Below are positions 1-40,523 of a stretch of 64,000 nucleotides of DNA, piece by piece. Source of the DNA: a bacterium (GTDB lineage Bacteria; JAAXHH01); the NCBI GenBank assembly GCA_965262815.1, contig OZ253560.1, positions 2,868,582-2,932,581 of the forward strand, written 5' to 3'. Numbering within the stretch: the stretch's first letter is position 1; every line of letters begins with the position of its first letter. The notes beneath the pieces were generated by a model that saw only the letters and a program-made list of their open reading frames with translations, was not told the DNA's origin and did not search any database. A program made the position numbers and the translations under genes.

Positions 1-467
1 TCCAGGGCCATATCCTGATATCCGCCCGGCAAGGGGTCGAACTTAAGGGCCGTGAAGCCATCAGACGCCGCGTTTCGCGCGGACTCGTACATGGTTTCCG
101 GCGTGCCGCCCCCTCCCAGCAGGTGAAGCCTGACCTTGTCCCTGCAGTTTCCTCCCAGCAACTCCCAGACCGGTACGCCGAAGTGCTTTCCCTTGATATC
201 CCACAGGGCGATGTCGACGGCGCTGACCGCGCCGGACAGGGCGCTTCCGCGGAAGGGCGACATGCGATATAGATACTGCCAGTGATGCTCGATGCGGAAC
301 GGGTTCTGACCGACCAGGTAGTCTTTGAACCGCTCCACGATCTGGTGCACGGCCTCCGGATAGCCCCAGCAGGCGGTCTGGCCCACTCCGGTGATTCCGC
401 TGTCGGTACGGATTCGTAAAACATATCCACCACCGATGTAATACGAGGCGATGTCTTCTATTTTCAC
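1..467 (-). CDS. Enolase-superfamily dehydratase (mandelate racemase/muconate lactonizing enzyme N-terminal domain, ManD/RspA-like), 5' part only; gene runs off window start
   Basis: Minus-strand translation from GTG at 465-467 gives (M)KIEDIASYYIGGGYVLRIRTDSGITGVGQTACWGYPEAVHQIVERFKDYLVGQNPFRIEHHWQYLYRMSPFRGSALSGAVSAVDIALWDIKGKHFGVPVWELLGG..., typical enolase-superfamily N-terminal capping domain. AAGAAAGG RBS lies upstream. Not in the ORF track because it is truncated; the track's 61..588 ORF is a different frame. Confidence 0.55.
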   Translation of the reverse strand, partial: MKIEDIASYYIGGGYVLRIRTDSGITGVGQTACWGYPEAVHQIVERFKDYLVGQNPFRIEHHWQYLYRMSPFRGSALSGAVSAVDIALWDIKGKHFGVPVWELLGGNCRDKVRLHLLGGGGTPETMYESARNAASDGFTALKFDPLPGGYQDMAL

Positions 468-5300: not shown

Positions 5301-7145
5301 ATGAGTTCAGACAGATTCGACTTTGCCATTGCCATAGGCGGCGCGGCGGGCCAGGGAATCGCCACTCCAGGCAATGTCCTCGCCCGGATTTTCATCCGCC
5401 GCGGACTGCACCTCAACGCCTACAATGCCTACCAGTCGATCATCCGGGGCGGCCATATATTCCTCACAGTGAGAGTCAGCGATCAACCGGTGCACAGCCA
5501 TGGCGACAAACTCGACCTGTTGGTCTGTCTGAACCAGGATACGATGGATCGGCACCTGGGCCTCATGGGGCCGGGTACGTGGGTCCTCTACAACAGCGAT
5601 ACGATCACGCCCGGGGTCCCGGCGGCCGGCGTCCACAGTTGTCCTCTTCCCATCGCCGAACTGACCGACAACAACCGCAACAAGCTCGTGCAGAACACCG
5701 TTTCACTCGGAACGATCCTCAAACTTCTCGACATGGATTTCCAGATCCTGGAAGACATCCTCACCATGCAGTTCCAGCGCAAGGGCCAGGACGTGGTCGA
5801 CGAGAATGTCGGCGTGGCGCGTGCGGGTTACGACTATGCCGCCACGCACTTTGAGCCCTTTTCAATGCCGGTACCCACCGGCGACAAGCCGATGGCGGTC
5901 TGGACGGGCAACGACGCGCTGGCCATGGGCGGCGCGGCGGCGGGCGTCAAGTTCTACTGCGCCTATCCCATGAGTCCATCCACGGGCGTACTCCACTGGA
6001 TGGCGCAAAACGCGCGGGAGCTGGGCATCATGGTGCGGCAGGTCGAAGACGAGATCGGCGTGGCCAACATGGCGATCGGCGCAGCGCACGTGGGGTGCCG
6101 GTCGATGTGCGCGACGTCGGGCGGCGGTTTTGCCCTGATGACCGAGGCGGTCGGCAGCGCCGCCATGATGGAAATACCCGTTGTTTTCATTGACGTGCAG
6201 CGCGCAGGACCATCCACGGGTGTGCCCACCAAGACGGAGCAGGGCGACCTCTGGCAGATACTCGGCGCGAGCCAGGGGGATTTCGAACGGTTCATCGTGG
6301 CGCCCACGGATGCCCTGGACGCCTTCAACACCATGCCCGAACTTTTCAACCTGGTGGACAGCTACCAGTGTCCGGGCATCGTGATATCGGATCTGCTGAT
6401 CTCCGAAGGCACCTTCAGCGTCGACCCGGAAGACATCGATATGCAACCGAACATAGAGCGGGGCGCGTTGATTACCGAGCCGGCCAATGGCGCGAGCGAC
6501 ATCCCGACGGGCTCGCAGGAGGCCAACGGACACGGGCTCATCGGAGCCCCGAGCAACGGTTACCTCCGGTATGAAAACACCGAAAGCGGCGTCTCGCCAC
6601 GGGCCCTTCCCGGCGTGGAAGGTTACGCCCATGTGGTGGCCTCGGACGAGCACGACGAGGATGGCGTCCTGGTGAGCGACGAATTCACCAATCCCCACAA
6701 GCGCCGCAAGATGGTGGAAAAACGCGCTCGAAAATTCAAGGATATCTCGAGCCGGATCAATCCGCCCGGACTCTCCGGAGCCGAAGACGCCGAGATCACG
6801 CTCATCGGCTGGGGTTCCACCCTCGGCGTGATCAGAGAAGCGGTGGAAATCCTCAGCCGTGAAGGCATCGCCGTCAACCACCTCCCGGTCAGATGGATCG
6901 TCCCGCTCCACGTGGACGCCATTCAGGAGGTCTTCGACAAGGCGAAACGGACGGCTATCGTGGAGAACAACTATTCCGGTCAATTCCATCGCTATCTGCG
7001 CAGCGAAACGGGTTTGACGGCGGACGGCCATATCAGGAAGTACGATGGCGAGCCGTTCATGCCCCATCATATCGTGGATGGCGTCAAAGAACTGCTGGCC
7101 GGCACAACGAACTGCTACGTGCCCTATCAAGAAGTCATCGTCTAA
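5301..7145 (+). CDS. korA: 2-oxoacid:ferredoxin oxidoreductase alpha subunit (fused gamma-alpha, KorA/OorA-like)
   Basis: DFAIAIGGAAGQGIATPGNVLARIF (gamma-domain GGxGQG) followed by the alpha pyruvate-flavodoxin oxidoreductase core. Start moved to ATG 5301 (GGAGA RBS) from ORF-track 5271. Confidence 0.85.
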   Translation: MSSDRFDFAIAIGGAAGQGIATPGNVLARIFIRRGLHLNAYNAYQSIIRGGHIFLTVRVSDQPVHSHGDKLDLLVCLNQDTMDRHLGLMGPGTWVLYNSDTITPGVPAAGVHSCPLPIAELTDNNRNKLVQNTVSLGTILKLLDMDFQILEDILTMQFQRKGQDVVDENVGVARAGYDYAATHFEPFSMPVPTGDKPMAVWTGNDALAMGGAAAGVKFYCAYPMSPSTGVLHWMAQNARELGIMVRQVEDEIGVANMAIGAAHVGCRSMCATSGGGFALMTEAVGSAAMMEIPVVFIDVQRAGPSTGVPTKTEQGDLWQILGASQGDFERFIVAPTDALDAFNTMPELFNLVDSYQCPGIVISDLLISEGTFSVDPEDIDMQPNIERGALITEPANGASDIPTGSQEANGHGLIGAPSNGYLRYENTESGVSPRALPGVEGYAHVVASDEHDEDGVLVSDEFTNPHKRRKMVEKRARKFKDISSRINPPGLSGAEDAEITLIGWGSTLGVIREAVEILSREGIAVNHLPVRWIVPLHVDAIQEVFDKAKRTAIVENNYSGQFHRYLRSETGLTADGHIRKYDGEPFMPHHIVDGVKELLAGTTNCYVPYQEVIV

Positions 7146-7157
7146 GGAGTCCCAAAC

Positions 7158-8078
7158 ATGTCAGTGGAAACTTTAACCCGTGACGAAGTGGAAGAAACAC
7201 CGGCAGTACCGCTGAAAGCGAAGGATTTCAAGGGAAAGGTAGATCCCGACTGGTGTCCCGGTTGCGGTGATTTCGGCGTATTGAGCAGCCTGCAGCGGGC
7301 CTGCGTCAACCTGGGCCTGCGACCCCACGAGGTACTCACGATCAGCGGAATCGGGTGTTCGTCGAATTTCCCCGGATACTTTAATTCCTACGGGATGCAT
7401 ACACTCCACGGTCGTTCGCTTGCGGTGGCCACGGGCGCGCAAATGGCGAACCACGAACTCACCGTTTTGGTCACGGGCGGCGACGGCGACGGATACGGCA
7501 TCGGTGGAAACCATTTCACCCACACGGCGCGGCGCAATGTCGACCTGACCTATATCGTCATGGACAACCAGATCTACGGGTTGACCACGGGCCAGGTTTC
7601 CCCGACCAGCAGTATCGACATGCGGACCAAAAGCACACCCTTCGGCAGCGTGGAAACGCCGATCAATCCCATCACGGCGGCGATCATGAATGGCGCCACC
7701 TTCGTGGCGCGGGGATTCAGCGGCGACGCGCGGCACCTGACCCAGCTCATCGAGCAGGCCGTTCAGCACCGGGGCTTTGCATTGATCGACGTATTCAGCC
7801 CCTGCGTCACGTTCAACAAGGACAACGACTACCCGTTCTTCAAACAGCGGGTCAAGAAGCTGGAAGACGAAGGCCACGACCCGAGCGACTGGAAAACAGC
7901 CTGCGAAAAGGCCCTGGTCTGGGGGGATGAAATCTACACCGGCCTGTTCTTTCAAAAAACGGACGCGCCCACGCTGGGTGACCAGGAACCGGTGCTGGAC
8001 GAAGGCGGCGCGCTGGCGCGGCGTGATCTGGGAATCAGCCAGGAGCAGGCAGGCCGGATTGTCAAGCGGATGATGTAG
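7158..8078 (+). CDS. korB: 2-oxoacid:ferredoxin oxidoreductase beta subunit (TPP-binding, KorB)
   Basis: DWCPGCGDFGVLSSLQRA...GIGCSSNFPGYFNSYGMHTLHGRSLAVATG...GGDGDGYGIGGNHF is the TPP-binding GDG motif. It begins 13 nt after the korA stop. Confidence 0.9.
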   Translation: MSVETLTRDEVEETPAVPLKAKDFKGKVDPDWCPGCGDFGVLSSLQRACVNLGLRPHEVLTISGIGCSSNFPGYFNSYGMHTLHGRSLAVATGAQMANHELTVLVTGGDGDGYGIGGNHFTHTARRNVDLTYIVMDNQIYGLTTGQVSPTSSIDMRTKSTPFGSVETPINPITAAIMNGATFVARGFSGDARHLTQLIEQAVQHRGFALIDVFSPCVTFNKDNDYPFFKQRVKKLEDEGHDPSDWKTACEKALVWGDEIYTGLFFQKTDAPTLGDQEPVLDEGGALARRDLGISQEQAGRIVKRMM

Positions 8079-33395: not shown

Positions 33396-34334
33396 ATGGC
33401 ACTTACTCAAGATCAGTTCCAGCATTTCTCAGACGAGGGCTATGTAATCGTCGAAGGCGCGCTAGACAACGCCGACCTTGATCCCGTCATCGCCGGAATC
33501 GAAGCTTACGTCGATGAACGGGCACATAATCTCAAGCAGGAGGGACTGATCTCGGAACTGCACGAGGGCGAACCCTTCGAGCGGCGGCTCGCCCTGATCA
33601 CGCAGGAAAACACCTCGATCTACGACGATATCGACATCATGCACATGCGGGCCGAAGCCGTGTTTCACTTCCTGGGCAACAGCCGGATGCTGGACCTGGT
33701 GGAATCCCTCGTGGGACCAGAAATCACGTGCAGTCCCATACAGCATCTGCGGGCGAAGCTGCCGGACAACCTGGTATATACGGGAAACGGGGAAGAAGAC
33801 CCCCTGGGCGCCCGCATCAAGGAGAACGTGGCGCCCTGGCACCAGGACGCGCAGGTACACCATGAAGACGCAGACCCGGTATTCATCCTCACCGTCTGGC
33901 TGCCCCTCTGCGACACCGACGAAGAGAACGGATGCCTGCAGATCATACCCCGGGTTCACCACCGGCGGACCGTGTACTGGAGCGAAGGGTTCGGCATCGA
34001 AGAAGGCCAGTTGCCCGAAGGCGGGGTCCTGTCACTGCCGATGAAGAAAGGCGACGTGCTCCTCATGCACAAGCTGATCCCGCACCGGTCCATCCCCAAC
34101 CGTTCCGGCACGATTCGGTGGAGTCTCGACCTGCGGTATCAACAGACCGGACTGCCCACCGGTCGTTCGTTTTACCCGAACTTCATCACCCGGAGCCGCC
34201 GCCATCCCGAGTTCGTGCTCACAAACTACGGAACCTGGCGCCGCGGTTGGGAGGAAGCGCTGAAGGTCACGACGCAGCGACCGCCCCGCAAGAATCGTCC
34301 TACCCAGCCGAAACAGATCCGGATGTACGGGTAA
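33396..34334 (+). CDS. Phytanoyl-CoA dioxygenase (PhyH) family oxygenase
   Basis: FSDEGYVIVEGAL...PWHQDAQV...LQIIPRVHH... Confidence 0.8.
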   Translation: MALTQDQFQHFSDEGYVIVEGALDNADLDPVIAGIEAYVDERAHNLKQEGLISELHEGEPFERRLALITQENTSIYDDIDIMHMRAEAVFHFLGNSRMLDLVESLVGPEITCSPIQHLRAKLPDNLVYTGNGEEDPLGARIKENVAPWHQDAQVHHEDADPVFILTVWLPLCDTDEENGCLQIIPRVHHRRTVYWSEGFGIEEGQLPEGGVLSLPMKKGDVLLMHKLIPHRSIPNRSGTIRWSLDLRYQQTGLPTGRSFYPNFITRSRRHPEFVLTNYGTWRRGWEEALKVTTQRPPRKNRPTQPKQIRMYG

Positions 34335-36777: not shown

Positions 36778-37017
36778 TCAGACGATATTCAGCATTTTGT
36801 TGGCATAGTCTTTTCCAGCCGTGGGCGACGGAAGGGACCGGCCTTCTTTTCGATACAAATCTATTGTTTCTTCGCAAATCCGGCATAGTTCAGTAAATAC
36901 GTCGCTCTCGTTCTCCCCATGACAACCGCCATAGAAGAGCCCGGGGCAACTTCCAACGTAACAATGGTCTTCATCGGACCACTCTACTATTTTGACGTAT
37001 TGGGAACTCGCCCTCAT
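36778..37017 (-). CDS. HicB-like (UPF0150) antitoxin-fold small protein, no HicA partner found
   Basis: YVKIVEWSDEDHCYVGSCPGLFYGGCHGENESDVFTELCRICEETIDLY matches the HicB N-domain pattern I.E.DEDG.YV..P.LPG....G.T.EE....EAIELY. Lies in a low-GC spacer. Confidence 0.45.
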   Translation of the reverse strand: MRASSQYVKIVEWSDEDHCYVGSCPGLFYGGCHGENESDVFTELCRICEETIDLYRKEGRSLPSPTAGKDYANKMLNIV

Positions 37018-37229
37018 TTTTTTGATTCCTCGATTGCGCCTTTCACGGCCATTTCCTGATCAATTTCGGCATCATCATTTTAAAACAGTGGGAATCTATG
37101 TGTCAAGGAGTTGTCCCAATATACTGGGCTTAGCTGAATTACATGTTTTTTATTTCTGGCGAACGAAACGCCGCTATACCGTGTTGTATTCTTGAAGCCC
37201 GCAGCCAGTCGACGAGCAAAGGACCGCGT

Positions 37230-37790
37230 ATGACCTACAGAGAGGGACGATCCATCGCCCTCGAAATCCACCGTGGAAACCGCGACGCGGTGGCGGACCT
37301 GGTGGCAACCTACGAGGACATTTTGTTTACCTATGCCTTTCATATGCTGGGCGGGTTTGACGACGCGAAGGACATTACGCAGGACGCCTTCGTACGGGCT
37401 TATGTCACGCTCACAGGCAAGTACGACGAGGAGCGTTGCCGGACCCTCGAGATTCGTCCCTGGCTTTTCCGCATCGTCCGGAACCTGGCGTTCAACAGAC
37501 TGCGGGCACGAAAACGGAAAGCGGCTGCGCAGGATCGAATGGCGGTCGAGTTTACAGTCAGCAACTCGGCTCGCGAGCCTTCCGATAACCAGACACGGGC
37601 TCTGCGGCTCGCCCTGGCCGGTTTGGGTGGAGAAAGCAGGGAACTGATCATCCTGCGATTCATCGAGCAGTCCAGTTATGCCGAAATAGCGTCGATAACC
37701 GGATCGTCGGAATCGGCCCTGCGCGGCAAGGTGCACCGCGCCTTAAGAAAACTGCGCAAGCTCATGGAGGATAAACCCCGTGAACTGTAA
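37230..37790 (+). CDS. RNA polymerase sigma-70 factor, ECF subfamily
   Basis: Sigma2 (DITQDAFVRAY...WLFRIVRN) and sigma4 (SYAEIASITGSSESALRGKVHRALRKLR). AAAGGA RBS. Confidence 0.85.
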   Translation: MTYREGRSIALEIHRGNRDAVADLVATYEDILFTYAFHMLGGFDDAKDITQDAFVRAYVTLTGKYDEERCRTLEIRPWLFRIVRNLAFNRLRARKRKAAAQDRMAVEFTVSNSAREPSDNQTRALRLALAGLGGESRELIILRFIEQSSYAEIASITGSSESALRGKVHRALRKLRKLMEDKPREL

Positions 37791-38670
37791 CGAAGCAAGG
37801 CAGTACCTGGATGCCGTGAGGACGGGAGAGGTTGACACCGAAGTGCGCCGGGCCGTGTCGGAACACCTTGAATCGTGTCCCGCATGCCGCGACGAGGCCG
37901 CATCCCTCGCGCGCCTGGCAGAGGGTATAAAGCCACTTAAAATGACCGCCCCAAACGGGATAATGGAAGGAGTAACAGGGATGATCATCGACCGATACGA
38001 TGTCATCGATACGGAGTTCGGACCGGCGCACGTGGGATTCACGCCAAGGGGCATATCCGCGGTAAAGCTCGATGTGGAGGAGGATGGCGTCTTCGAAACC
38101 TATTATGAAGACAGACTGGGGCGGAAGGTGGCACGAGGCAGTTTGCCTGGAAAATACGCAAATGCGGTCAGGAAAGCGATCATGGGCGAGAAGAACATCC
38201 CGCCGCCGGTCACCCTCGAGGGTTTGACCGGATTCGAACGGACCGTCCTGGAGCACCTGGCCAAGATACCGCTCGGCGAGGTACGGCCCTACGCCTGGCT
38301 GGCCCGGGAGGTGGGCAGGCCGAAGGCGATCCGGGCCGTCGGCACAGTCATGGCGCGAAATCCCGTGCCCTTCTTGATGCCCTGCCACCGGCTGGTACCC
38401 TCGGTGGGCGGCGTGGGGAACTACTATTACGGCCCGGAGATGAAATTGACGCTGCTGGAACGGGAGGGGATCGCCAGGGAGGATCTCGCGAATTGGAAAC
38501 AACGCGGCGTTCGCTTCGTCGGCAGCCGTACGACCGGTATTTTCTGTTATCCGACCTGCCGCGACGCCCGTCGCATCCAGCATCGGCATCGCCTGGAATT
38601 CACCAGTGCCGATGAGGCGACAGCAAACGGTTGCCGGCCGTGCAAGCACTGCCGGCCGTTAGCGACGTAG
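37780..38670 (+). CDS. Anti-sigma factor (zf-HC2/ZAS N-domain) fused to O6-alkylguanine-DNA alkyltransferase (Ogt N+C domains) and a C-terminal Ada-type Cys4 zinc methyl-acceptor domain
   Basis: GTG start overlaps the sigma stop by 11 nt. MNCNEARQYLDAVRTGE...VSEHLESCPACRDE is HxxxCxxC. TVLEHLAKIPLGEVRPYAWLAREVGRPKAIRAVGTVMARNPVPFLMPCHRLV carries the PCHR active site. RTTGIFCYPTCRDARRIQHRHRLEFTSADEATANGCRPCKHCRP matches E. coli Ada residues 31-74 (RTTGIFCRPSCRARHALRENVSFYANASEALAAGFRPCKRCQP). Confidence 0.8.
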   Translation: MNCNEARQYLDAVRTGEVDTEVRRAVSEHLESCPACRDEAASLARLAEGIKPLKMTAPNGIMEGVTGMIIDRYDVIDTEFGPAHVGFTPRGISAVKLDVEEDGVFETYYEDRLGRKVARGSLPGKYANAVRKAIMGEKNIPPPVTLEGLTGFERTVLEHLAKIPLGEVRPYAWLAREVGRPKAIRAVGTVMARNPVPFLMPCHRLVPSVGGVGNYYYGPEMKLTLLEREGIAREDLANWKQRGVRFVGSRTTGIFCYPTCRDARRIQHRHRLEFTSADEATANGCRPCKHCRPLAT

Positions 38671-38731: not shown

Positions 38732-39565
38732 CTAGCGGTTCCGAGGCGGAATGTCGTCACCCGCCGGCCGAGGCACGGGTCTCCAGTAACCCGAGGGATC
38801 GCTGCCCCGGCAGACGAGGGCCTGGTGGTATTCCGGATTGCGGCCGCGAACGTCGGGCGGTAAATATCGTATCGTCAAACCGCAGCGGCGGCGGTTGGAT
38901 ACATTTGGTTCGGATCCGTGCAACAAAAGGTCGGTGTGAATGGAAATCTGGCCCGCCTTCATGACAAAGGGTACGGGGGACCCGCCCCACCTGTCCGGAT
39001 CGAGGACGGTCTGCCCCAACACGTTTCGCTCCGCCTTCGTGCTGTTTTCGAACGGGATCTGGCCGTGCCGGTGAGAGCCCGGGATCACCGTCATGGGCCC
39101 GTTCTCCTCGTCCACGTTGTCGATGGCCAGCCAGATCGTTACCACCTTGCTCGGGGTGAGCGGCCAGTACGAAGCATCCTGGTGCCAGCTTACCTTTTTA
39201 ATGTCCCCGGGCATCTTGCAGAAGTAATGGGTCATCTCGCAGATCAGCGTCTCGCCGACCAGGTCTTCGGCGTAGTCCAGGATCCTGGGCGTCATGGCCA
39301 GGTCGTAAATGCCCCTGCAATGTCTCTGCCAGCCATTGATCGAGTAGCTGTTGTATCCCTCTTTCTCGGCCCGAGCCATCATGTCTTCAAAGTACAAGCG
39401 GTTCGCCTCCGCCTCCTGGGGCGTGAAAACGTCCAAGGGGCACAGGTACCCGTTTTCATTGAAAAAAGCAATCTGATCGGGCGTTAACGTCTTCGGATGT
39501 TCGTTTCGCACCGGGAAAAACCGCAGTTCCCGTTTCATTTCGGGCAAGGCATCGGTTATGGGCAT
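38732..39565 (-). CDS. Phytanoyl-CoA dioxygenase (PhyH) family oxygenase
   Basis: SWHQDASYWPL...IWLAIDNVDEENGPMTVIPGSH...VSNRRRCGLTIRYLP. Paralog of 4085..4858. Start trimmed to an internal Met. Confidence 0.8.
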   Translation of the reverse strand: MPITDALPEMKRELRFFPVRNEHPKTLTPDQIAFFNENGYLCPLDVFTPQEAEANRLYFEDMMARAEKEGYNSYSINGWQRHCRGIYDLAMTPRILDYAEDLVGETLICEMTHYFCKMPGDIKKVSWHQDASYWPLTPSKVVTIWLAIDNVDEENGPMTVIPGSHRHGQIPFENSTKAERNVLGQTVLDPDRWGGSPVPFVMKAGQISIHTDLLLHGSEPNVSNRRRCGLTIRYLPPDVRGRNPEYHQALVCRGSDPSGYWRPVPRPAGDDIPPRNR

Positions 39566-39683
39566 AAAGTGACCCCGGTCGATGGCACGGACTGTGATGG
39601 ATGGCCTGTCAGATGATCGCGACGGTAAATATAGCGGCACAAAACGCTTGAGACAACCCTTTGCATCGGTTAAATACCCCTAC

Positions 39684-40523
39684 ATGGACGACAAAACGAT
39701 AAAGGCGCTTTCCACCCTCGACCTCGTGCCGGGCGCGTCCGTCGAAGAGGTGAAGAAATCGTACCGCGAACTTGCGCTGATATGGCATCCGGACAAGGTC
39801 CCCGCCCAGGTGAAAGACCGGGCGACGACAAAGTTCACGGAGATCAACGAGGCGTACCAGTGGCTCGTCCGGAACCCGGATCGACTGAAGGCATCCGCTA
39901 CCTTCGGTTCATCTTCCACCCGGCAGTCGCCACCCCGTTATCGTTCGGCGCGGGGATCGTCAGAGGGACGCGCGGGTGGGGCCCGCACTGACCGGGCACG
40001 AACCGGTGCCTCCAGCCAGTCGGGATCGGGTGCCTCCAGCCAGTCGGGATCGGGTGCCTCCAGCCAGTCGGGATCGGGCGCCTCCGCCGACCCGGCTGTC
40101 CAGCGCATACGAAGGGCCGCGCAAGGAACCTGGACCGATGCCGGTTCGGGCCTGTACGTCTACCCCGATATCGATGCAGACCGGGCCGCTAACTTCGTCG
40201 TATCGCTGCAGCAAAATGCCCTCTTCAAAGGCGCGGCCTCAACGGTGAACGACCTGCTGGTTTTCTACGATATCGACGGATCCGGCGAAGAAGGCATGGC
40301 CATCACCCGGTCGAACCGCCTGGTCAACAACAACGTATCGGCGTCTTACGACATCGGCGATCTGGAGGAAGTCAGGCTGAAAGAGGGGTTGTTCTGGAGC
40401 GAGATCGTGGTGCGGAGACGGGGGCAAAATCGTTTTGAAAGGGTGGGATACGTGGAGAAGTCTCCCGGGCGGGCGCTGGCGAACATTCTGCAAAAGCTGG
40501 TCGCCGAAAATATTGCCGCTTGA
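39684..40523 (+). CDS. J-domain (DnaJ-like) protein with Ser/Gly-repeat linker and C-terminal PH-like domain
   Basis: YRELALIWHPDKVP...INEAYQWL is a canonical J-domain with HPD. Then (GASSQSGS)x3, then a roughly 130-aa domain of unknown function. Confidence 0.65.
   Translation: MDDKTIKALSTLDLVPGASVEEVKKSYRELALIWHPDKVPAQVKDRATTKFTEINEAYQWLVRNPDRLKASATFGSSSTRQSPPRYRSARGSSEGRAGGARTDRARTGASSQSGSGASSQSGSGASSQSGSGASADPAVQRIRRAAQGTWTDAGSGLYVYPDIDADRAANFVVSLQQNALFKGAASTVNDLLVFYDIDGSGEEGMAITRSNRLVNNNVSASYDIGDLEEVRLKEGLFWSEIVVRRRGQNRFERVGYVEKSPGRALANILQKLVAENIAA
40005..40076 (+). repeat. Perfect 3x24-bp tandem repeat (GGTGCCTCCAGCCAGTCGGGATCG)3 plus degenerate 4th copy, encoding (GASSQSGS)n
   Basis: Seen directly. 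100% nucleotide identity among the three copies. Confidence 0.7.

Follow-up and report, generated by a model that had tools for sequence, protein, structure and literature searches.

Suicide DNA-repair proteins such as Ogt are spent at one molecule per lesion, so that cells need a synthesis matched to consumption. To our knowledge, the only well-understood solution to this is the Ada protein of E. coli, whose shut-off is awkward. Ada carries a Zn(Cys)4 domain (N-Ada) and an Ogt-type acceptor in one autoregulated polypeptide; methylation of its Cys38 is the transcriptional switch, and the methylated protein gains affinity for DNA and contacts RNA polymerase (RNAP), which leads to activation. 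The Ada-Zn and Ogt modules have been shuffled among phyla, as in AdaA/AdaB of B. subtilis and in the actinobacterial combination of AdaA-AlkA with Ogt. These split systems keep an output of the AraC helix-turn-helix (HTH) type, and we know of none that uses a sigma/anti-sigma pair. A second kind of system is that of the class I zinc anti-sigma factors, represented by RsrA/SigR, ChrR/SigE, RsiW/SigW and RslA/SigL, in which a four-helix domain with ligands spaced C/H-x(25)-H-x3-C-x2-C is encoded directly 3' of the gene for an ECF sigma factor. In ChrR, a cytoplasmic anti-sigma factor, the C-terminal domain is the sensor.

The closest catalogued relative of the locus described here is the ECF122 group, whose conserved neighbour is a 6-O-methylguanine DNA methyltransferase (MGMT) proposed as a possible regulator (PMC8999054, citing Casas-Pastor 2021). 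The entry for ECF122 in that 2022 review lists the group without a cognate anti-sigma factor and gives its mechanism as unknown, with WP_057211282.1 of Cellulomonas sp. Root930 as an example (PMC8999054). The locus lies in a window of 64 kb, the whole stretch of DNA that was analysed, and has the same MGMT neighbour, a likeness drawn from the published description of that neighbour. Actinomycetota are well represented among the sigma/partner pairs that we collected, as they are in ECF122. However, in contrast to the group as listed there, the MGMT neighbour here has a predicted N-terminal class I anti-sigma domain and a C-terminal Ada-type Cys4 domain. The statement in the preliminary description that such an arrangement had not been described is therefore true in part only: the link between sigma factor and MGMT is already recorded in the ECF122 entry, whereas the anti-sigma/Ogt/Ada-Zn architecture itself was not found. 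Neither experimental work on this architecture nor a description of it turned up in the searchable literature, including that on ECF sigma factors and alkylation. The module combines two known kinds of system and is partly catalogued.

Table 1. Coordinates of the sigma gene, its partner gene, their features and the predicted promoter in the window.
Feature	Position	Strand	Details
ECF-type promoter CGAACgAAA-N12-GTGTT (predicted)	37160..37185	+	-35 GAAC, 16-nt gap, -10 GTGTT
ECF (group 4) sigma gene, 186 aa	37230..37790	+	ATG 37230; stop 37788-37790
Anti-sigma/Ogt/Ada-Zn fusion gene (partner), 296 aa	37780..38670	+	GTG 37780; stop 38668-38670
Class I anti-sigma domain (predicted), residues 1-69	37780..37986	+	helices 3-15, 20-32, 34-53, 61-69
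ZAS ligands	Cys3 37786-88; His29 37864-66; Cys33 37876-78; Cys36 37885-87	+	
Ogt/MGMT O6-alkylguanine-DNA alkyltransferase, N- and C-domains, residues 70-232	37987..38475	+	
Candidate acceptor Cys202 of PCHR	38383-38385	+	
N-Ada-type Zn(Cys)4 methylphosphotriester-acceptor domain, C-terminal, residues 233-296	38476..38667	+	
Ada-type cysteines	Cys256 38545-47; Cys260 38557-59; Cys288 38641-43; Cys291 38650-52	+	

The upstream gene codes for a protein that contains only the sigma2 and sigma4 regions (Pfam Sigma70_r2 at residues 24-96 and Sigma70_r4_2 at 123-175) and has the length of about 180-200 aa that is typical of ECF (group 4) sigma factors. With TIGR02937 (sigma70-ECF) it reaches a score of 79.1 (cutoff 42.9), and no equivalog cutoff was reached in the NCBIfam search. 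Its start codon is aligned across relatives and is preceded by a Shine-Dalgarno sequence (AAAGGA, 37218-37223); an upstream ATG at 37143 was rejected as the start, as it sits 5' of the promoter. The second gene has its own Shine-Dalgarno sequence (GGAGGA, 37766-37771), and inspection of the open reading frames gave exactly what had been reported for the pair, namely a partner of 296 aa that begins at a GTG and shares its first 11 nt with the end of the sigma gene. On the opposite strand, a 295-aa ORF (37762-38649, -) is a mere mirror of the real gene that recurs in 77 loci.

Each domain of the partner was identified by three independent methods. In Pfam, zf-HC2 covers residues 3-37 (28.6 bits, cutoff 22.2), DNA_binding_1 residues 152-231 (86.7 bits) and Ada_Zn_binding residues 243-293 (38.8 bits, cutoff 23), whereas Methyltransf_1N gave no score; of the four domain calls proposed as a check in the preliminary description, three were thus obtained, and the Ogt N-domain fold was nonetheless found. 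Indeed, when a profile of 90 homologues was searched against the PDB, Ada-C (1sfe) aligned to residues 69-230 with an E value of 5e-28, so that the expected complete Ogt with its PCHR cysteine is present, in a two-domain fold made of an RNase-H-like N-domain and an HTH C-domain. In the same search N-Ada (1adn) aligned to residues 248-294 (E 5e-10, with N-Ada structures at about 1e-9), and the complex of N-Ada with DNA was also a fold match. The cysteines C256, C260, C288 and C291 are equivalent to C38, C42, C69 and C72 of Ada, which bears out the earlier assignment of a C-terminal Ada-type domain with all four zinc ligands. The absence of an HTH output, also noted before, was verified in Pfam, where no match to HTH_AraC and no sequence-specific HTH were seen in the partner. 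NCBIfam returned an Ogt superfamily match and weak anti-sigma matches, while the Ada equivalog NF011964 reached 103 bits, through the Ogt part alone, against a cutoff of 345. Compared with E. coli Ada, the four zinc cysteines and the PCHR motif are present, but the order is reversed (Ogt, then Ada-Zn) and the AraC HTH is missing. By these matches the partner is not an Ada orthologue, though it reuses both Ada modules.

Concerning the N-terminal domain, RsiW, the anti-sigma factor of SigW (5wuq_C), aligned to residues 4-69 in the PDB profile search (E 2.8e-4), and a four-helix anti-sigma fold was found. The preliminary description was right as to the presence of an anti-sigma domain and of the HxxxCxxC signature, but it gave the domain about 55 aa instead of about 69 aa in four helices, and it overlooked the fourth ligand, Cys3, upstream of H29, C33 and C36, with which the RsrA-type spacing C-x25-H-x3-C-x2-C is complete in the window. 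By fold, motif and gene context, this region belongs to the class I/ZAS family of anti-sigma domains, with a predicted inhibitory role. As in ChrR, a soluble C-terminal domain would be the sensor. Unlike in the known zinc anti-sigma factors, however, the C-terminal part consists of two suicide modules for DNA repair, and the protein would respond to methyl groups passed irreversibly from damaged DNA rather than to reversible oxidation or proteolysis. Close relatives can also do without the zinc ligands.

The pairing with a sigma factor proved to be strict. A genome scan for the partner recovered 80 loci, two of which begin at a contig end; in all the remaining 78, which have enough flanking sequence, an ECF sigma gene lies immediately 5' on the same strand (75 detected by tblastn and three more by ORF inspection), and the search for this domain order together with an ECF sigma gene, suggested earlier as a check, thus gave a uniform answer. 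In most loci the sigma stop and the partner start overlap by either 11 nt or 4 nt (ATGA). The pairs are spread over at least seven phyla (Gemmatimonadota, Latescibacterota, Zixibacteria, Acidobacteriota, Chloroflexota, Dormibacterota and Actinomycetota), with relatives of about 296 aa and 45-89% identity to the partner in Gemmatimonadota, Zixibacteria, Chloroflexota and Acidobacteriota; a close relative, OZ245326.1, codes for a partner with 93% identity. The pairs also occur in the genome assembly of an actinobacterium and in assemblies of two sequencing runs from a metagenome context, as well as in cultured bacteria, namely Streptomyces sp. NBC_01022 and Rubrobacter radiotolerans, which carries the pair on plasmid 2 (sigma WP_051590067.1 and MGMT WP_084264190.1). 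In one locus (L051) sigma, Ogt and Ada appear in a single chain, which we rejected as a natural fusion: region 4.2 reads out of frame, indicating a frameshift artefact, and a near-twin (L059) has an ordinary ATGA overlap.

When some 2,800 flanking ORFs were clustered, no conserved neighbour emerged beyond the pair. An ORF that by eye resembles a methyltransferase, present in 28 loci, was dismissed as a conserved partner since it reflects clade synteny, and the neighbours in the window (a PhyH dioxygenase, a DnaJ-domain protein, an SBP_bac_5 solute-binding protein and TenA) are not tied to alkylation repair. In some genomes the gene directly 3' of the pair is itself a repair gene: a naked Ogt-Ada-Zn paralogue in locus L024, and a canonical ogt in Streptomyces. 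The Ogt-like domain of the Streptomyces partner has lost the Tyr and Arg-finger residues while PCHR and the Ada Cys4 are kept, which hints that the Ada-type domain may be the indispensable sensor.

Upstream of the sigma gene, the only conserved block in the otherwise divergent regions of 21 close relatives is CGAACnAAA-N12-GTGTT. Across the 64 kb of the window this pattern matches once, where 0.03 matches would be expected, and within 6 kb on either side of the loci it is found only 5' of sigma, including in an acidobacterial locus (L053) whose partner has 38% identity to that of the window. A distant clade has TGCAAC-N16-GTGTT with equal spacing, promoters of the (G/C)AAC-N16-GTGTT type also occur in Rubrobacter and Streptomyces, and (G/C)AAC-N16-(G/C)TGT is present in 46 of 74 upstream regions. 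No promoter of the sigma-70 type was seen upstream of sigma on the same strand, nor any conserved element resembling an Ada box, besides the -35 and -10, in the upstream regions of close relatives. The predicted promoter bears the hallmark of an ECF operon that regulates itself and whose promoter specificity is conserved. No second copy or regulon site was present in the window or the 80 loci, and targets of the alkA, alkB or aidB type were not found in the window and the flanks of the loci. A metagenome-wide scan with the 16-base consensus gave at least 80 matching loci, none of those listed having this sigma downstream, and these are chance matches.

Conservation within the partner is very uneven. 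In an alignment of 78 partners, Cys202 of PCHR, the equivalents of human MGMT Tyr114, Arg128, Asn137, His146, Arg147, Tyr158 and Glu172, and all four Ada-type zinc cysteines are invariant. By contrast, the ZAS ligands, conserved to 90% or more in a set of 90 long-form proteins from the database, are complete in 14 and degenerate in 13 of the 27 long-form loci, and relatives about 75% identical to the window partner carry sets such as SHRS, RQSC or CQSS. The anti-sigma domain is retained all the same, under purifying selection (dN/dS 0.36) that is more relaxed than that on Ogt (0.105) and on Ada-Zn (0.15). Fifty of the 78 relatives are of a short form (about 255-285 aa) that lacks helices I-III and whose first residue hhalign places opposite residue ~44 of the window partner. 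It keeps the last 1.5 helices or so, and in a structural model (pLDDT 94.7) the Ogt N-domain is preceded by only two short helices. Short-form relatives are still paired with sigma and retain the promoter, and the shared promoter specificity argues that long- and short-form systems form one ECF lineage. The short form is very abundant, mostly in Acidimicrobiia and other Actinomycetota, its clusters numbering more than 3,261 (E <= 1e-20). Contrary to the earlier impression, the architecture is not rare and extends to thousands of clusters. The zf-HC2 domain is missing from the precomputed Pfam calls of most homologues. The HxxxCxxC motif on which the preliminary description was based is thus present in the window but dispensable elsewhere, being degenerate in many long forms and gone with helices I-III in the short ones, so that the zinc motif is not the conserved sensor; the invariance of the MGMT residues and of the Ada cysteines makes the repair domains the candidates for this role. 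For the short forms, either a minimal anti-sigma element would be enough, or sigma would be controlled otherwise.

Taken together, the pairing with sigma, the invariant acceptor cysteines, the autoregulatory promoter and the downstream ogt and Ogt-Ada genes of some genomes strengthen the case for an autoregulated circuit responding to alkylation damage, with sigma set free once the anti-sigma factor has taken up a methyl group, as the preliminary description proposed, and which we regard, with modest confidence, as the probable function of the locus. Sigma would transcribe its own two-gene operon from GAAC-N16-GTGTT, and the co-translated, equimolar partner would sequester it via the N-terminal class I domain. 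The Ogt domain would move alkyl groups from O6-alkylguanine to Cys202, and the Ada-type domain methyl groups from methylphosphotriesters to Cys256. Since these transfers are irreversible, damage would leave the anti-sigma factor modified and unable to restrain sigma, by a conformational change, by retention on DNA, or by destabilisation followed by proteolysis. Freed sigma would then renew the supply of both sigma and repair protein until the unmodified anti-sigma factor again outweighs the damage, a loop that would match the synthesis of a consumable enzyme to its consumption. Where Ada activates directly while bound to DNA, the output here would lie in holding back an ECF sigma factor and then letting it go. 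We infer that the N-domain binds sigma and, above all, that methyl transfer relieves the inhibition, as well as the cysteine that would be responsible. Methylated Ada is an activator for which we know of no rapid degradation, and the proposed release step is accordingly without a direct precedent.

Could the partner instead sense thiol chemistry in the manner of RsrA, oxidation or alkylation of the ZAS thiolates freeing sigma and Ogt-Ada being co-regulated cargo? The full ligand set in the window and its conservation in the long-form database proteins fit such a scheme, and zinc motifs associated with redox sensing are overrepresented among the soluble anti-sigma factors of class I (PMC7406223). 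The same source, however, finds mixed zinc and non-zinc groups to be common and zinc to be often purely structural (PMC7406223), and in our data the ligands are swapped in nearly half of the long forms, at about 75% identity and under purifying selection, while in the short forms the motif is absent and both the sigma pairing and the promoter stay; we thus judge redox sensing distinctly unlikely. Somewhat less so, but still on the unlikely side, is that the N-domain is an ordinary anti-sigma and the repair domains only repair, with feedback setting a constant level of Ogt, or with sigma freed by unrelated proteolysis or transcriptional control. An autoregulatory promoter, translational coupling and the lack of any further conserved partner are what a signal-independent homeostat would have, and the review entry on the MGMT-associated group gives its mechanism as unknown (PMC8999054). 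Yet this would leave unexplained why two distinct irreversible methyl-acceptor modules are coupled to an anti-sigma factor in at least seven phyla, and why the Streptomyces protein keeps its Ada Cys4 while the repair residues of its Ogt decay.

A further possibility borrows more directly from Ada: the N-terminal element would merely tether sigma, and methylation of the Ada-type domain would raise its affinity for DNA and recruit sigma-RNAP to promoters or damaged DNA. The way in which methylated Ada activates, the fold match to the N-Ada/DNA complex and the small N-terminal element to which the short forms are reduced would all agree with a tethered co-activator. Against it, the partner has no sequence-specific HTH, its N-domain matches inhibitory anti-sigma domains over its full length, and no element like an Ada box accompanies the -35 and -10, so that we consider this reading very improbable.

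Returning to the alkylation-responsive circuit, we put forward more tentatively, as an attractive possibility rather than the probable outcome, that an anti-sigma factor which is itself a suicide enzyme represents the first sigma/anti-sigma switch signalled by irreversible methyl transfer from damaged DNA, a self-resetting adaptive response to alkylation that takes the place of the Ada/AraC design in seven phyla or more, and that in the short forms a remnant of roughly 25 residues together with the repair domains acts as a minimal anti-sigma factor hitherto overlooked. If true, the latter would explain why ECF122 was catalogued without one.

As the anti-sigma factor would be the consumable enzyme itself, two genes would provide both induction and automatic shut-off. 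If this is true, such a system may serve as a compact and orthogonal alkylation biosensor in synthetic biology, and ECF sigma factors would gain covalent alkyl transfer from DNA as a further input signal. An orphan ECF group present in thousands of environmental bacteria and in some cultured ones, among them the radiation-resistant Rubrobacter and Streptomyces, would also acquire a mechanism.

In the partner of the ECF sigma factor, an anti-sigma domain is joined to Ogt and Ada-type zinc domains. In the plasmid-borne locus of Streptomyces sp. NBC_01022 (L085), the partner retains the PCHR motif and the Ada Cys4 site, and the equivalents of MGMT Tyr114 and Arg128 (human numbering) are gone. The same plasmid carries a separate canonical ogt after the partner and an AfsR/SARP regulator gene just 5' of sigma. 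A Chloroflexia MAG (L024) encodes, directly 3' of its long-form partner, a second Ogt-Ada-Zn gene that lacks the anti-sigma helices. In two Latescibacterota relatives (L013 and L025), a six-residue insertion brings the partner to 302 aa. An apparent single-chain sigma-Ogt-Ada fusion in L051 was rejected as a frameshift artefact, with sigma region 4.2 out of frame.

Coordinates of features in the window and at related loci (L-numbers; coordinates of each locus)
Feature	Location	Strand	Remarks
79-aa ORF	window 36778-37017	-	divergent from sigma operon
sigma-70 promoter of 79-aa ORF	window 37106-37077	-	near-consensus TTGACA-18-TAAAAT, 11/12
PhyH-family Fe(II)/2OG dioxygenase paralogue	window ~33396-34334	+	one side of region
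PhyH-family Fe(II)/2OG dioxygenase paralogue	window 38732-39640	-	other side of region
DnaJ-domain protein	window 39582-40523	+	tandem SGSGASSQ repeat within low-complexity linker
partner	L085 3378-4220	+	annotated 'Ada metal-binding domain-containing protein'
separate canonical ogt	L085 4253-4810	+	32-nt gap after partner
second Ogt-Ada-Zn gene	L024 ~7010-7681	+	PCHR, CxPxC, CxxC present
six-residue insertion	L013 and L025, partner residues ~24-30		between anti-sigma helices I and II
apparent sigma-Ogt-Ada single chain, 461 aa	L051 5377-6762	+	long-read MAG
sigma/partner module near NHEJ genes	L081 6604-8638		one actinobacterial genome
ORF resembling class I SAM-dependent methyltransferase (by eye)	L029 6958-8121	-

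Concerning the surroundings of the operon in the window, the product of the divergent 79-aa ORF gave no significant match in a Pfam search and resembles, as judged by eye, a HicB-type antitoxin; its DNA is kept 5' of the sigma operon in many close relatives. The two flanking PhyH-family paralogues do not belong to the AlkB family, and their synteny is shared with ~22 related loci. The DnaJ-domain protein gene is kept downstream in ~20 related loci.

Other neighbours were observed further afield. At the actinobacterial locus, genes for a LigD Prim-Pol and an ATP-dependent DNA ligase lie ~2 kb from the module, separated from it by a rhomboid gene and one for an unannotated 388-aa protein. The methyltransferase-like ORF is convergent with the partner and lies just 3' of it in 28 loci (L029 plus 27 others of Chloroflexota type), an arrangement that probably represents clade synteny.
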